Shown here one piece after another: positions 9,556 to 14,418 of a DNA stretch of 23,048 nucleotides. This DNA is from a virus. Its lineage: Duplodnaviria > Heunggongvirae > Uroviricota > Caudoviricetes. Location: IMG/VR virus record IMGVR_UViG_2651869692_000002; one strand, given 5' to 3'. Made by a program: the position numbers and the translations under genes. The notes beneath the pieces are model-generated. The model made no database searches and was not told the origin of the DNA. It was given only the letters and a program-made list of their open reading frames with translations. Every line of letters starts with the position of its first letter. The first letter of the stretch is position 1.

Positions 9556-11322
9556 ATGAACACCACACTGACACCCGCAGATCTCGATCCCCGTCGGCAG
9601 GCCATGCTGCTGTACTTTCAGGGATACCGTGTAGCCCGCATTGCTGAAATGCTGGGCGAGAAAGTTGCAACCGTTCACAGCTGGAAAAAACGCGACAAGT
9701 GGGGTGACTATGGGCCGCTGGATCAGATGCAGCTCACCACCGCCGCACGCTACTGCCAGCTCATTATGAAGGAGCACAAAGAAGGGAAAGATTTCAAAGA
9801 GATTGACCTGCTGGCGCGCCAGTCGGAGCGCCATGCGCGGATCGGCAAGTTTAACAATGGCGGCAACGAAGCCGACTTAAACCCTAACGTCGCCAACCGC
9901 AACAAAGGCCCGCGCCGTCAGCCGGAAAAGAACGTTTTCACCGATGAACAGATTGAGAAGCTGGAAGAAATCTTCCATTCCTCCATGTTCAACTACCAGC
10001 GCCACTGGTGGGAAGCCGGAAAAACCAACCGCATCCGCAACCTGCTGAAGTCACGCCAGATCGGCGCGACCTTCTATTTTGCCCGTGAAGCCCTGATTGA
10101 CGCCCTGCTAACCAGGCGTAACCAGATTTTCCTTTCCGCCAGCAAGGCTCAGGCCCACGTCTTCAAGCAGTACATCATCGACTTCGCCAAAGAAGTGGAG
10201 GTGGAGCTGAAAGGCGATCCGATGGTGCTTCCTAACGGGGCCACGCTGTACTTCCTCGGCACCAATGCCCGCACGGCCCAGAGTTACCACGGCAACCTGT
10301 ATCTGGATGAATATTTCTGGATACCGAAATTCCAGGAGCTGCGCAAAGTGGCTTCCGGTATGGCTATTCACAAAAAATGGCGACAAACCTATTTTTCCAC
10401 GCCATCCAGCCTGACACACAGTGCTTATCCGTTCTGGTCCGGTGCGCTGTTCAACCGAGGGCGCAACAAAGCCGATAAGGTGGACATCGACCTGTCCCAC
10501 AGCAATCTGGCCCCCGGCCTGCTGTGCGCAGACGGGCAGTACCGCCAGATAGTCACTGTGGAAGATGCGGTGCGCGGCGGCTGTAACCTGTTCGACCTCG
10601 ACCAGTTGCGCATGGAGTACAGCCCGGACGAATACCAGAACCTGCTGATGTGTGAGTTCGTGGACGATCTCGCGTCCGTGTTCCCGCTCAGCGAGCTGCA
10701 GGCGTGCATGGTGGACAGCTGGGAAGTCTGGACCGACTTTCATGCACTGGCGCTGCGCCCGTTTGGCTGGCGCGAAGTGTGGATCGGTTATGACCCGGCA
10801 AAAGGTACGCAAAACGGCGACAGCGCCGGATGCGTGGTGGTGGCTCCGCCAGCCGTGCCGGGCGGCAAGTTCCGCATTCTTGAGCGTCACCAGTGGCGCG
10901 GAATGGACTTTCGCGCCCAGGCTGACGCCATCAAAAAACTGACCGAACAGTATAACGTGACCTATATCGGCATCGACTCGACCGGCGTCGGTCACGGGGT
11001 TTACGAGAACGTGAAAGCGTTTTTTCCTGCCGTCCGGGAGTTTGTCTACAACCCCAACGTTAAAAACGCCCTGGTACTCAAGGCCTACGACATTATCAGC
11101 CACCGCCGCCTGGAGTTTGACGCCGGGCACACCGACATTGCGCAGTCATTTATGGCAATCCGTCGCGCTACCACTGCCAGTGGCAACCGCCCGACCTATG
11201 AAGCCAGCCGCAGCGAAGAAGCCAGCCATGCCGATCTGGCCTGGGCAACAATGCACGCACTGTTTAACGAACCGCTGCAGGGCGAGTCCGCCAATACCAG
11301 CAATATTGTGGAGATTTTTTGA
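9556..11322 (+). CDS. P: Terminase large/ATPase subunit (P2 gpP-like)
   Basis: 588-aa ORF, ATG at 9556, full-length resemblance to P2-family terminase large subunits; stop overlaps the Q start (TGATG). Confidence 0.9.
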   Translation: MNTTLTPADLDPRRQAMLLYFQGYRVARIAEMLGEKVATVHSWKKRDKWGDYGPLDQMQLTTAARYCQLIMKEHKEGKDFKEIDLLARQSERHARIGKFNNGGNEADLNPNVANRNKGPRRQPEKNVFTDEQIEKLEEIFHSSMFNYQRHWWEAGKTNRIRNLLKSRQIGATFYFAREALIDALLTRRNQIFLSASKAQAHVFKQYIIDFAKEVEVELKGDPMVLPNGATLYFLGTNARTAQSYHGNLYLDEYFWIPKFQELRKVASGMAIHKKWRQTYFSTPSSLTHSAYPFWSGALFNRGRNKADKVDIDLSHSNLAPGLLCADGQYRQIVTVEDAVRGGCNLFDLDQLRMEYSPDEYQNLLMCEFVDDLASVFPLSELQACMVDSWEVWTDFHALALRPFGWREVWIGYDPAKGTQNGDSAGCVVVAPPAVPGGKFRILERHQWRGMDFRAQADAIKKLTEQYNVTYIGIDSTGVGHGVYENVKAFFPAVREFVYNPNVKNALVLKAYDIISHRRLEFDAGHTDIAQSFMAIRRATTASGNRPTYEASRSEEASHADLAWATMHALFNEPLQGESANTSNIVEIF

Positions 11323-12356
11323 TGGGAAAGAGTAAGAAGAACCGCGCTGCGTCGACGAAACAGATCCAGCATAAAAGCCAGACTTCAGCCGAAGCATTCA
11401 GCTTCGGTGATCCCGTTCCTGTTCTGGACCGCCGCGAACTGCTGGACTATGTGGAATGCGTACAGATGGATCGCTGGTATGAGCCACCAGTGAGTTTCGA
11501 CGGACTGGCGCGAACCTTCCGCGCCGCCATACATCATAGCTCACCGATTGCAGTGAAGTGCAACATTCTGACCAGCACCTACATCCCTCACCCGCTGCTC
11601 AGCCAGCAGGCTTTTTCGCGTTTTGTACAGGACTTTCTGGTTTTTGGTAACGCCTACCTGGAGAAACGCACGAACCGCTTCGGTGAAGTTATAGCCCTTG
11701 AGCCTGCTCTGGCAAAATACACCCGACGCGGGTTAGACCTGGATACCTACTGGTTTGTGCAATACGGTATGACAACCCAGCCGTATCAGTTCACGAAAGG
11801 CAGCATTTTTCATCTGATGGAGCCGGACATCAACCAGGAGATCTACGGCCTGCCCGGTTATCTTTCTGCCATTCCGTCAGCCCTGCTCAACGAGTCCGCC
11901 ACGCTGTTCCGCCGGAAGTATTACATTAACGGCAGCCATGCGGGCTTCATCATGTACATGACCGACGCCGCGCAGAACCAGGAGGATGTGAACAACCTCC
12001 GCAACGCAATGAAAAGTGCCAAAGGTCCTGGTAACTTCCGTAACCTGTTTATGTACTCGCCTAACGGCAAAAAGGACGGGCTTCAGATTATCCCGTTGTC
12101 AGAAGTGGCGGCGAAGGATGAGTTCCTGAATATCAAGAACGTGAGCCGGGACGACATGATGGCGGCGCATCGTGTGCCGCCGCAAATGATGGGTATCATT
12201 CCCAACAATACCGGCGGTTTTGGGGATGTGGAAAAGGCCAGTCGCGTCTTCACAAGAAACGAAATAGTACCGTTACAAAAGCGATTGCTGGAGCTAAATG
12301 AATGGCTTGGTGAAGAGGTAGTCCGATTCAATCCATATGAGCTTAATACTGACTAG
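11322..12356 (+). CDS. Q: Portal (capsid portal vertex) protein (P2 gpQ-like)
   Basis: Track ORF starts at a TTG at 11319; the ATG at 11322 gives 344 aa, the length I recall for gpQ; the last ~80 nt are visibly AT-richer than the rest. Confidence 0.9.
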   Translation: MGKSKKNRAASTKQIQHKSQTSAEAFSFGDPVPVLDRRELLDYVECVQMDRWYEPPVSFDGLARTFRAAIHHSSPIAVKCNILTSTYIPHPLLSQQAFSRFVQDFLVFGNAYLEKRTNRFGEVIALEPALAKYTRRGLDLDTYWFVQYGMTTQPYQFTKGSIFHLMEPDINQEIYGLPGYLSAIPSALLNESATLFRRKYYINGSHAGFIMYMTDAAQNQEDVNNLRNAMKSAKGPGNFRNLFMYSPNGKKDGLQIIPLSEVAAKDEFLNIKNVSRDDMMAAHRVPPQMMGIIPNNTGGFGDVEKASRVFTRNEIVPLQKRLLELNEWLGEEVVRFNPYELNTD

Positions 12357-12363
12357 CAAGCAT

Positions 12364-12388
12364 AAAAAAGCCCGGTATTACCGGGCTT
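12364..12388 (-). terminator. Rho-independent terminator (hairpin plus T-tract on the minus strand), possibly bidirectional
   Basis: AAAAA-AGCCCGG-TATTA-CCGGGCT: GC stem followed by a T-run when read on the minus strand; sits between the Q stop and the 3' end of the minus-strand small ORF. Confidence 0.55.
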
Positions 12389-12411
12389 CATGCAAAACGC
12401 ATTTCATGGAA

Positions 12412-12591
12412 TTAAGCAGCTTTCTGCTTTTCTTTGAGCTTACCATGCAGCTCATTTCCTTCAAATTTGCAGTCCTGCATCATATGTGGGGCCGCTTGAA
12501 GTAGTTCTTCCATCGCGACGCCCATACGGCTGAAAACATCAGATACTGAGTAATGCTTCTGAGCTTTCTTGTCACTATGCGTCATAGTCAT
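12412..12591 (-). CDS. Small hypothetical protein (59 aa), second gene of a two-gene minus-strand module
   Basis: Not in the ORF track (under 60 aa); ATG at 12591 preceded by AGAGGA at good spacing; reads MTMTHSDKKAQKHYSVSDVFSRMGVAMEELLQAAPHMMQDCKFEGNELHGKLKEKQKAA; followed by the terminator at 12364-12388. Confidence 0.4.
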   Translation of the reverse strand: MTMTHSDKKAQKHYSVSDVFSRMGVAMEELLQAAPHMMQDCKFEGNELHGKLKEKQKAA

Positions 12592-12670
12592 GATTTCCTC
12601 TTAGAGGTCAAGCCTCATCATCCGGTGGTGGATGTTTGGCGCAGCATTGTAGCACTGCGCAAAAATTTAT

Positions 12671-13270
12671 CTACTGTTTCTTAGAAGTAATGTAGCGTCT
12701 TACTACATCAGTTATTGTAGCAAAAGGTGCCGAAAGCAAGCTTATATCACCTTTAAAACCAAATTTTTTATAGTGGTCAGCAACTTTTTGATTCAGGGCT
12801 TCAGGGATCCGAATCTCTTGACACCCAACCGCGCTACCAAAAAGATATACCGCCCACAATGTAACCATGAACATGTTGCCGTAAAGAGGGTGCTCTACGT
12901 CATCATCTTTCACAAAAGATTCCACAAAATGGATCTCTATGACTCCAGCGTCCTCGTCAAAGGTGCACATAGCTGCGCCAGAAGGGATATGCCTAAGTGG
13001 CCCCGCAAGGAGCTTCAAACAAAATTCAAACTTATCACTTCGATTGCCAAACCGAGAAAAACCATAATCCCATTCTAGCTGAGCGTATCCTGTGGTCAGG
13101 ATCACATAGTCTTCATCACTGATTGGACCAACAGCCAACGGCATCTTCAAAGTATCGAGGAGAAACTGAAGGTTACTTATACTTTGACTGGCAATCTGCT
13201 CTAAGTTCAATTCTCTGTCCTTCATGCTTACGACATTAAAGGCGACTACTTTAATGTCATTTTCGGACAA
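12671..13270 (-). CDS. Hypothetical protein (199 aa), AT-rich accessory gene between the portal gene and the putative cos
   Basis: 600-nt ORF in an AT-rich region; start uncertain (TTG at 13270 or ATG at 13225, neither with a strong RBS); no family recognised. Confidence 0.5.
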   Translation of the reverse strand: MSENDIKVVAFNVVSMKDRELNLEQIASQSISNLQFLLDTLKMPLAVGPISDEDYVILTTGYAQLEWDYGFSRFGNRSDKFEFCLKLLAGPLRHIPSGAAMCTFDEDAGVIEIHFVESFVKDDDVEHPLYGNMFMVTLWAVYLFGSAVGCQEIRIPEALNQKVADHYKKFGFKGDISLLSAPFATITDVVRRYITSKKQ

Positions 13271-13496
13271 AGACTATAAATCTTTAATGAAACAATAGCA
13301 GAACCTTTTAAAGGTTTGCTACCTATCACTGCAACTTGTGACAGAACACTAAATCTACAGCCAACTCCGGAACACATTCAACATTTATTTAAATCCCTTC
13401 AAACAAGATTGCACAAAAACGCGCCCTCCCTTTCAGAAGAAAACCATCAGCGGGCCTGAGGCTAAGTGAATTTTACTATTTCAACCCGCGGCGCGC

Positions 13497-13515
13497 GCTC
13501 GTATCCCCGCCACGC
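13497..13515 (-). other. Putative cos site (cohesive-end region) of the P2/186 family
   Basis: Minus strand reads GGCGTGGCGGGGATACGAG; the first 13 nt match my recollection of the P2/186 cohesive-end consensus (GGCG(A/T)GGCGGGGAAAGCA.), in the orientation expected for the Q-proximal genome end; GC-rich island inside AT-rich DNA. Confidence 0.4.
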
Positions 13516-13560
13516 CTGCCCGCTTTGTGTAGTGGTTTTCATGCACCTGCATGACATAAG

Positions 13561-13584
13561 CAAAAGCCCGCCAGCTCTGGCGGG
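13561..13584 (-). terminator. Rho-independent terminator downstream of the HNH gene
   Basis: 9-bp GC stem GCCCGCCAG / CTGGCGGGC followed on the minus strand by TTTTGCTT. Confidence 0.55.
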
Positions 13585-13698
13585 CATCAGCAAAAACGAT
13601 CCTCAAACGATCATGCGATTTCATGCGGCATAGACATGCGTTGGCAAAAATGCACGAAATACTCAGCTTATAGGAAATGGTCTTTTTCCAACCTCCAG

Positions 13699-14418
13699 TT
13701 AGCCAAAGCAGAAACCAATATTGCAATTTGAAACTCCACAGTTGTGAAATTGATGTGGACCTACTCTTAGCTTGTGTTCGTCTCCTACAATCCGAGTCCC
13801 CTTAACCAACATATCTAATCTTTCCACAATCAATCTTTCAGGCGCATCAACTTTAATAATTAAACGAGGACCTTTCCTTTTTTCTATAATAGTTATTCTA
13901 GGACCGACAACCTGAACATCCCAATGCCTTGCACTACAAACCCACTCATTCTTAATTAATTCAAGATTAACAATACCTTGACTATCGTAAAATTTACCCG
14001 AAATAAGAAAAGCATTATTTTCTTTTTCAATGGTTAACAATGGCTCATTTTGAAACATTATTGGTACAGTACAGGATTCAAACGTCGCACCACCAAATAT
14101 TATTGTTGGATGCCTATCAGAAAAGTCCAATATATCGGCCACATTCCCTTTTTGTAAGGCTGCAGGAGATTCCATTGCTTTAATTATTTTCTCTTTAGAG
14201 TAAAGACGTTTCGTTACTTTCGCATGGCACGTAGGACAAAGTAGTGCTATTGCATTTGGAGAGTGCTCCTTTGCATCAGCGTATGTGGGAATTACATGCT
14301 CATACTCAACAATGGGAGAAGCACAAACAACGCAACCGAAGCCACAGCGCTGCCTTACCTCCAGTTTTACAGGTTCAGGAATTGTTCTAGATAACCCATG
14401 CTTGTTAATAGTTGTCAT
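13699..14418 (-). CDS. HNH-family endonuclease domain protein with uncharacterised ~160-aa C-terminal domain
   Basis: 239-aa ORF, ATG at 14418; N-terminal CGFGCVVC...EYEHVIP...NAIALLCPTCH matches the HNH fold (paired Cys plus H-N-H residues); AT-rich composition; own terminator. Confidence 0.7.
   Translation of the reverse strand: MTTINKHGLSRTIPEPVKLEVRQRCGFGCVVCASPIVEYEHVIPTYADAKEHSPNAIALLCPTCHAKVTKRLYSKEKIIKAMESPAALQKGNVADILDFSDRHPTIIFGGATFESCTVPIMFQNEPLLTIEKENNAFLISGKFYDSQGIVNLELIKNEWVCSARHWDVQVVGPRITIIEKRKGPRLIIKVDAPERLIVERLDMLVKGTRIVGDEHKLRVGPHQFHNCGVSNCNIGFCFG

Follow-up and report, generated by a model that had tools for sequence, protein, structure and literature searches.

A two-gene cassette between the portal gene and cos of a P2-like prophage pairs a predicted GNAT-fold protein with a small partner and is a candidate toxin-antitoxin-like module

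Organization of the cassette

The DNA examined here is a stretch of 23,048 nucleotides (nt) from IMG/VR virus record IMGVR_UViG_2651869692_000002, referred to in its full length as the window. It is a P2-like prophage in which the gene order is terminase, portal, cassette region, cos-like site, HNH-like gene, and replication gene A region. This report concerns the cassette region, for which an earlier reading of the letters (the original prediction) had proposed two co-oriented genes. Both of these open reading frames (ORFs), one of 199 amino acids (aa) at 13270..12671 and one of 59 aa at 12591..12412, are present in the sequence on the minus strand. The cassette was found to consist of the following features.

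12671..13225, minus strand: large gene, 184 aa from the ATG at 13225 assigned by PGAP, 179 aa from the TTG at 13210, and at most 199 aa from the TTG at 13270
12412..12591, minus strand: small gene, 59 aa (57 aa from an alternative ATG at 12585), phrog_2741
12592..12602, minus strand: Shine-Dalgarno region of the small gene, AAGAGGAAATC before the ATG, as read from the sequence
12646..12673, minus strand: sigma-70-type promoter-like site for the small gene, TAGATA-16 nt-TACAAT with an upstream TG, from a promoter scan and from conservation
12367..12389, minus strand: intrinsic terminator, GAAGCCCGGTAATACCGGGCTTT followed by TTTATGC, 22 nt past the stop of the small ORF
13226..13468, minus strand: upstream non-coding part, comprising the 5' untranslated region (5'UTR) and the presumed promoter of the large gene, with a conserved element TCCGAAAATGACATTAAAGTAG and a -10-like TATAGT

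The length of 199 aa is a mechanical maximum, because homologues and the PHROG profile (phrog_4350) begin at about residue 16-21 of that ORF, the PGAP start in near-identical genomes is the ATG at 13225, and the conserved TTG at 13210 also lies further in. The ORF was therefore correctly noted, and its likely starts give 179-184 aa. In a DNA alignment of five sequences, consisting of the window and four other loci that are P2-type or closely related, a TTGAAC start context follows an AGGGA/AAGGA-like Shine-Dalgarno sequence in every case, and the corresponding site in the window is TTG 13210 with AAGGA. The start context of the large gene is weak or built on TTG. The gene is intact from ATG 13225 or TTG 13210, and whichever start is used it is not the degraded remnant that had been considered at the outset.

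The good ribosome-binding site ascribed to the small gene was borne out (AAGAGGAAATC-ATG). The motif AGAGGAA is invariant across the five-sequence alignment, and a short hairpin (GAGGC-TTGA-CCTC) stands ahead of the Shine-Dalgarno sequence. The -35 hexamer of the promoter-like site overlaps the TAG stop codon of the large gene. Most other clades carry a TAGACA/TAGACG-N16-18-TAnAAT/TAGGAT element directly after the stop of the large gene, and in the five-sequence alignment the spacer that contains the promoter element is at least as conserved as the coding sequence. From these features the small gene is predicted to have its own, conserved promoter. Upstream of the large gene, the promoter scan returned weak candidates only and no strong promoter, and a P2 Ogr-type late-promoter motif (TGT-N12-ACA) was not seen there by eye. 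The promoter of the large gene is a weakly supported prediction. The element TCCGAAAATGACATTAAAGTAG (plus-strand positions 13246-13267) is common to the window and to Mixta, Pectobacterium, and viral loci, and is partly kept in locus L005; it contains a mini-ORF (ATG-ACA-TTA-AAG-TAG) within the presumed 5'UTR of the large gene.

At the other end, the pair was confirmed to close with a hairpin and T-tract terminator, formed by a 10-bp stem and a T-run at 12389..12367 and situated 10 nt beyond the stop codon of the portal gene on the opposite strand. A GC hairpin with a T-run follows the small gene in every clade examined, and a similar AACCCGGC...GCCGGGTTTTTT is often present. With a weak promoter, the large gene, a strong promoter, the small gene, and a terminator in succession, the cassette of ~1.1 kb has the layout of an autonomous prophage moron.

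The leader of the small gene varies in length from ~45 nt in the clade of the window to as much as ~170 nt in the Escherichia coli O157-type clade, where it forms hairpins with some compensatory changes. In the O157-type spacer and leader of 150-200 nt (L080 6532-6727, L017-L074, alignment A6), the conserved hairpins are TTACC-N5-GGTAA, ACCAATCG...CGATTGGT, and GGTAGC...GCTACC, and a further hairpin, GAGAC...GTCTC, lies directly before the Shine-Dalgarno sequence; compensatory changes were seen in two helices. Rfam gave no match above threshold in the cassette, where the sub-threshold ones are terminator look-alikes, and none for the O157-type leader.

A GCGCAG/CTGCGC repeat in the spacer was considered as an RNA hairpin and rejected, as the 69%-identity locus L005 breaks the pairing at two positions with no compensation. 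Because L005 keeps the overlapping -10 and not the pairing, the repeat is read as promoter sequence that may also include an operator. Several clades have short palindromes across the promoter of the small gene, with GCGCAG...CTGCGC around the -10 in the window and CTAGTA..TACTAG in L051, and a palindrome GGGATCCC is found in the spacer of the O157-type clade. Judged from their position, these palindromes could be operators for autoregulation.

Conservation, pairing, and distribution of the two genes

Having delineated the cassette, we examined its relatives. Nonsynonymous-to-synonymous ratios (pN/pS) calculated against six relatives fall between 0.07 and 0.28 for the large and small ORFs (0.08-0.28 for the small ORF alone), values that place both genes under purifying selection. 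For the large protein there are 29 clusters at 90% identity among 5.8 billion proteins, and an exhaustive profile search of 1.84 billion cluster representatives resulted in 75 representatives only, with full-length homologues reaching down to ~17-20% identity. The family is thus rare, and every named source is a member of the Enterobacterales. The family of the small protein includes a few sources outside this order, such as Shewanella. The PHROG families of both proteins, phrog_4350 for the large and phrog_2741 for the small, are annotated as "unknown function".

To examine pairing, 19 genomic and 80 viral loci were retrieved through their similarity to the large protein, followed by three more distant ones, and the small partner at each locus was sought with a profile of the small protein; the pair was counted over 112 loci, 109 obtained by large-protein homology and the 3 distant ones. 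Each of the 112 loci with a large-protein relative also has a small-protein homologue, always on the same strand and 80-210 nt downstream. Across these loci the large protein ranges from 34% to 100% identity, and over 40 different small proteins are represented. The original prediction was to be abandoned if the two ORFs were conserved together nowhere, and the pairing instead proved obligate among the loci examined. Among the most distant family members, P0075 and P0058 had no relatives in the viral collection. In one relative (L029) the large gene is disrupted.

The two halves of the cassette differ in their divergence at the DNA level. Between the window and L011 the synonymous divergence (pS) of the large gene is saturated, at 0.74 with 86% protein identity, while the small gene is far closer in DNA, with a pS of 0.22. 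The spacer and the terminator also look better conserved than the large gene in the DNA alignment (window positions 12412-13225 against L011, L047, L003, and L005). This pattern suggests, at the level of sequence comparison, a different recombination history of the small-gene half or an added constraint at the nucleotide level.

The cassette was found in at least four types of slot across temperate phages of Enterobacterales. In P2-like prophages of E. coli, Pectobacterium, and Mixta, it is always located between the portal gene and cos. In lambdoid prophages of Serratia symbiotica, Brenneria, and others, it lies directly downstream of an S24 CI-type repressor and in the same orientation, which is the position of rexAB. 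Several lambdoid prophages carry it between a putative late-regulator gene and holin-like or lysis genes, as judged by eye from the translations of the neighbors, and in a dusA-integrated lambdoid prophage of E. coli it occupies the extreme edge of the element. The cassette is carried by ~7% of complete E. coli genomes, the O157:H7 lineage included. The version of the dusA type, whose large protein is 39% identical, is present at 99% identity or more in ~358 of 5426 complete E. coli genomes, O157:H7 among them.

The cassette has remained intact within prophages that are decaying around it. In E. coli 504239 (L002 2316-6057), the portal gene is split by an ISCro1/IS66-family element and the cassette is undamaged. 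The same is true of the dusA prophage of O157:H7 (L110 8524-13881), which contains several truncated or pseudogene neighbors and ISEc8.

The two genes differ in their ability to stand alone. A DNA search of E. coli with the O157-type pair resulted in 361 full-length records and ~205 records that contain the small gene only, at 95-99% identity; the small gene occurs without the large one in ~204 complete E. coli genomes. The converse, a large gene that lacks its small partner, was encountered in 0 of the 112 loci and in none of the sampled partial matches of the O157-type DNA search. When the orphan loci (L126 1986-3187 and L127, from E. coli AR_0085 and CFS3273) were compared with L080 5911-6714, a swapped segment was found that starts ~85 nt ahead of the large gene and stops ~14 nt before the ATG of the small gene. 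The replacement encodes a Panacea-domain protein (WP_000458583.1; PF13274, 67.9 bits) and a 128-aa hypothetical protein (WP_014640052.1). The orphan loci keep the small ORF (WP_000390072.1), its Shine-Dalgarno sequence, and the terminator, such that the small ORF becomes the third gene. Panacea is a SocA-like, known antitoxin domain, and under the name DUF4065 it has been reported as an alternative partner of GNAT toxins (PMC9177977). The presence of an antitoxin domain in the replacement cassette therefore indicates that the slot hosts cargo of the toxin-antitoxin type.

Fold and relatives of the large protein

An AlphaFold2 model of the large protein, computed from a 30-sequence alignment, was confident (pLDDT 89, pTM 0.85). 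The order of its secondary structure elements, beta1-alpha1-alpha2-beta2-beta3-beta4-alpha3-beta5-alpha4-beta6, is that of a GNAT, with one extra helix at the N-terminus and another at the C-terminus. The model thus presents the large protein as a highly divergent GNAT fold. Foldseek ranked AtaT (6ajm_B, 6gtq, 6gtr, 7chd) and KacT (5zgn_C, 5xun) first and listed GmvT and TacT3 further down, and by two methods the best solved structural matches are the toxins TacT, AtaT, KacT, and GmvT. The lead of these toxins over ordinary acetyltransferases is small, with TM-scores of 0.5-0.64, and the next-best structures include many protein N-terminal and lysine acetyltransferases and peptide modifiers (NatB, RimI, NatD, Gcn5, and a lasso-peptide acetyltransferase). 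A safe statement from the modelled structure is that of a GNAT fold whose nearest solved relatives are acetyltransferase toxins.

Neither protein had a match among PDB sequences when searched with a single sequence or with a profile of the close family, and no solved chain of AtaT, TacT, or KacT was matched at E<=10 by these two queries. The Pfam family Acetyltransf_1 was touched by a single one of 54 family members (E=0.0058). A profile of these 54 diverse members resulted in 16 sub-threshold matches to PDB sequences, all with E>0.07, of which 12 are named acetyltransferases; these matches align through the "Y..FGF" motif of alpha4. Among toxin chains this wider profile reached GmvT alone (9ilr_A), at a non-significant E of 0.78.

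The close family shows no variation at E102, F104, P113, L114, G116, M118, G156, or F157. Among the 54 members of the wider family, no variation occurs at W52 and almost none at Y152, in the "YxxFGF" motif of alpha4. In the model, E102 lies where beta4 ends and Y152 lies within alpha4; judging from position within the secondary structure and not from a superposition, these would be the sites at which GNAT enzymes usually hold the general base and the general acid. The loop before alpha3 reads H112-P-L-Y-G116-N-M118, where a GNAT pyrophosphate loop between beta4 and alpha3 would read Q/R-x-x-G-x-G/A. This loop lacks the Q/R of motif position 1 and the G/A of position 6, although P113, L114, G116, and M118 are invariant, and an extra stretch of ~8 residues follows beta4 ahead of the loop. 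The protein is acidic, with a pI of 5.1 compared to a family median of 4.9.

The small protein

The small protein is predicted to form one amphipathic helix (residues 16-33/39, pLDDT 80-90) with disordered tails on both sides. Its conserved features are a helix core, F..MG.A.E.L..AAP, and an E..G motif. In most clades the protein is basic and rich in lysine and arginine, with a pI of up to 10.5. The C-terminal tail in the window is K-E-K-Q-K-A-A, and basic residues followed by Ala-Ala end nearly all variants (KQKAA, RRRKAA, HRQAA, and KAKAA). C-terminal degrons recognized by ClpX have been tabulated and include ssrA (...YALAA), RseA (...MGVAA), and MuA (RRKKAI) (PMC8138137). The resemblance of the Ala-Ala tail to these degrons is suggestive, although an analogy of this kind is not a test.

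The slot between the portal gene and cos

The surroundings of the cassette in the window were delimited by the following features.

9556-11322, plus strand: terminase gene, upstream of the portal gene
11319..12356, plus strand: portal gene (gpQ homologue), annotated as "phage portal protein" in a 99.8%-identical record; left edge of the slot
~13495-13516, no strand assigned: cos core (cohesive-end region), from alignment to the P2 cos GGCGAGGCGGGGAAAGCAC; right edge of the slot, outside the cassette
13566-13585, minus strand: strong terminator-like hairpin (GCCCGCCAGAGCTGGCGGGC with a T-run) in conserved cos-flanking DNA, downstream of the HNH gene
13699-14418, minus strand: gene for a 239-aa HNH-motif protein (PF01844, 24.8 bits; phrog_6544, unknown function)

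The same gene order is annotated in E. coli 23-AB02114, in which the stretch is 99.8% identical. The original prediction had stated that the portal gene of P2 is almost adjacent to cos and that ~1.1 kb of AT-rich DNA separates them here, and both statements agree with our measurements. In phage P2, 167 nt separate the Q stop (187) from cosL (1-19), with terminator tQ alone in between. In the window, the gap from the Q stop at 12356 to the cos core, as located by the P2 cos alignment, is ~1.14 kb. The cassette region has a GC content of 0.40-0.46, compared to 0.54-0.62 in the structural genes, and this low-GC DNA with both minus-strand genes is absent from phage P2. Similarity to other P2-like prophages restarts at ~13469-13491. 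The ~150 nt that flank cos are conserved in 1255 of 5426 E. coli genomes, and the version of the cassette found in the window is present in 11 of these ~1255 genomes. The terminator-like hairpin at 13566-13585 is part of the block common to ~1255 E. coli genomes.

The placement of a module between the portal gene and cos therefore stands, while its novelty has to be qualified. The cos-proximal gpA-gpQ region of P2-like phages is a known hotspot of diversity and defence (Rousset et al. 2022, PMC9122126), and the cassette occupies the Q-proximal side of it, so that the type of location is not new. The locus table of that study lists the small protein (WP_021523861) and its neighbor as "hypothetical + hypothetical", and the pair is not among the cloned or validated systems that it describes (PMC9122126). 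By accession, PHROG identifier, and the subject of GNAT proteins or phage defence, we found no description of the pair in the literature. The cassette is conserved and widespread, and has so far been catalogued just as "hypothetical".

The HNH protein at 13699-14418 represents cargo on the gpA side of cos, where E. coli 504239 has an unrelated hypothetical gene of 141 aa. Because the gpA-side cargo differs in this manner, the two sides of cos vary independently.

Proposed function and alternative explanations

We tentatively favor, at somewhat below an even chance, the reading of the cassette as a toxin-antitoxin-like or abortive-infection module; the original prediction had raised a toxin-antitoxin or small defence operon for the large-plus-small layout. 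In comparative and structural terms it is supported by the strict pairing, a GNAT fold close to toxins, the predicted promoter of the small gene, and the asymmetry of the orphans. Its intactness in decaying prophages and its location in accessory slots expressed in the lysogen count in the same direction, as do the purifying selection on both genes, the conservation of E102 and Y152 at the presumed catalytic sites, the one-helix partner with its degron-like tail, and the Panacea cargo of the orphan loci. Orphan small genes in the absence of orphan large ones would be expected of a harmful large protein whose antidote is the small one. In such a module, the large GNAT-fold acyltransferase would be the effector or toxin, and its target may be aminoacyl-tRNA, by precedent of the closest structural relatives, or a protein. 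The small protein would be made in excess, given its own promoter and strong ribosome-binding site compared to the weak or TTG start of the large gene, and its amphipathic helix might bind and block the enzyme. It would be short-lived if ClpXP reads the exposed basic ...K-A-A tail. Were its supply to stop, upon host shut-off by an infecting phage or upon loss of the prophage, the enzyme would be freed, could modify an essential target, and would arrest growth, with abortive infection or prophage addiction as the outcome. A more specific form of this proposal, which we regard as possible and put forward with greater reserve, is that the cassette is the founding member of an undescribed prophage immunity or addiction system, in which a GNAT effector, maybe with a target other than aminoacyl-tRNA, is restrained by a micro-protein of ~58 aa that has one helix, a ClpX-type Ala-Ala degron, its own promoter, and a structured leader.

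A number of points weigh against a toxin-antitoxin-like module. Neither protein is recognized by PADLOC v2, and of the profile and structure searches proposed at the outset, only the latter gave an assignment, the GNAT fold of the large protein, with no match in Pfam or NCBIfam for either protein. The pyrophosphate loop that would hold acetyl-CoA is non-canonical (HPLYGNM) with ~8 extra residues after beta4, and cofactor binding is for this reason putative. The acidic pI speaks weakly against binding of tRNA. The partner is encoded downstream and consists of a single helix that is not DUF1778/RHH or DUF4065, in contrast to the upstream antitoxins of GNAT toxin systems, and a spacer of 80-200 nt together with a separate promoter is unusual for a type II operon. 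The orphan small genes could be passive remnants of a recent swap; they stem from one kind of recent replacement event, which gives the asymmetry a moderate weight. The Ala-Ala tail could have another purpose. Every functional step of the proposal, namely catalysis, toxicity, neutralization, ClpXP lability, the trigger, and an anti-phage effect, is one that we infer.

An alternative is an enzyme of lysogenic conversion that is not toxic, a possibility that we consider unlikely yet serious. Such an enzyme would acylate a specific protein or small molecule and benefit the lysogen or exclude competitors without killing. Its target might be of host or incoming-phage origin, or might be the lysine-rich tails or N-terminus of the small partner, which would then be a substrate, adaptor, or regulator and not an antidote. 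The presence of NatB, RimI, NatD, Gcn5, and the lasso-peptide acetyltransferase among the next-best structures is consistent with this idea, as is the moron-like location in slots expressed in the lysogen, and an acidic enzyme with a basic partner rich in lysine and arginine (pI up to 10.5) fits an enzyme-substrate or enzyme-adaptor pair. The two readings overlap, as TacT is reported to acetylate its own antitoxin. A conversion enzyme leaves unexplained, however, the orphan asymmetry, the dedicated and stronger promoter of the small gene, and the toxins as top structural matches in two methods.

A benefit to the phage during lytic growth or induction is improbable in our estimation. Here the enzyme might, for example, serve counter-defence through acylation of an immune component of the host or of a factor from a competing satellite, with the small protein as a timing switch. 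Phage hotspots also carry anti-defence genes, the cassette in the window abuts the late packaging operon and cos, and in some lambdoid relatives the pair is flanked by putative late-regulator genes and by holin or lysis genes, a position in which read-through by late transcription is expected. Yet in the P2 context the cassette is oriented opposite to the neighboring late genes, it has its own promoter-like signals and terminator, it remains intact in defective prophages incapable of lytic growth, and in other phages it stands behind the CI repressor, in a position expressed in the lysogen. The possibility that an old insertion left behind ORFs that are spurious or in decay, and that serve no function today, is essentially excluded by the evidence of selection and conservation. 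The lack of database annotation, the weak start context of the large gene in the window, and the disrupted large gene of L029 would fit such remnants, but pN/pS values of 0.07-0.28 in both ORFs, full-length homologues down to ~17-20% identity in 75 cluster representatives, a confident AlphaFold2 fold, conserved signals, and the integrity of both genes, at 99.9% identity, in ~358 E. coli genomes all run counter to it. The probability that is left falls to functions of some other kind.

If the cassette does prove to be a toxin-antitoxin-like module, acetyltransferase-type toxin systems would gain a partner of a new class and a new arrangement of genes, the immune genes of the P2 hotspot and lambdoid morons would gain a compact cargo of ~1.1 kb, and two genes that are called "hypothetical" in hundreds of E. 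coli genomes, O157:H7 among them, would have an assigned function. A non-toxic cassette would still define a new family of phage-borne acyltransferases, one that has an obligate micro-protein partner. Its small size permits direct cloning and testing, and the conserved Tyr and Glu residues and the Ala-Ala tail offer mutational handles.

Comparison with known systems

Among characterized systems, the GNAT type II modules (TacAT, AtaRT, KacAT, ItaRT, and GmvAT) have the closest three-dimensional similarity to the large protein. There is no detectable sequence homology to them, and the large protein falls outside the "true TA clade" (TA, toxin-antitoxin) of PMC9177977, in which characterized GNAT toxin systems have an upstream DUF1778 or DUF4065 antitoxin (PMC9177977). 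The enzyme also differs from the GNAT toxins in being acidic, in its non-canonical pyrophosphate loop, and in the insertion after beta4. The cassette is not a member of the canonical GNAT/DUF1778 family.

With type II modules in general, the cassette shares two adjacent, co-oriented genes that are inherited together (112 of 112 loci), and an antitoxin that can stand alone while the toxin does not finds its counterpart in the ~204 E. coli genomes with the small gene only. In higBA, hicAB, and mqsRA the order of the genes is reversed, and an additional promoter feeds the second gene. The cassette resembles these modules in having the larger gene first, the small partner second, and an extra promoter for the latter. 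The antitoxins of higBA, hicAB, and mqsRA have DNA-binding domains and their genes are close or overlapping, whereas the partner here is a single-helix protein of 57-60 aa with a long, partly structured leader.

Compared to lambda rexAB and other morons, the cassette shares promoter-like signals of its own, a terminator, a deviant composition, and, in several lambdoid relatives, the position after CI. The proteins are unrelated to those of rexAB, and the cassette is without membrane components. The cargo of the P2 hotspot, including old/tin and the systems of Rousset et al. 2022, belongs to the same class of slot and is likewise small, AT-rich, and variable among syntenic prophages; old and tin of P2 are on the A side of cos, and the cassette described here is on the Q side. 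By its location and variability, as judged from genome comparison, the cassette can be counted both as a prophage moron and as cargo of the P2 hotspot.

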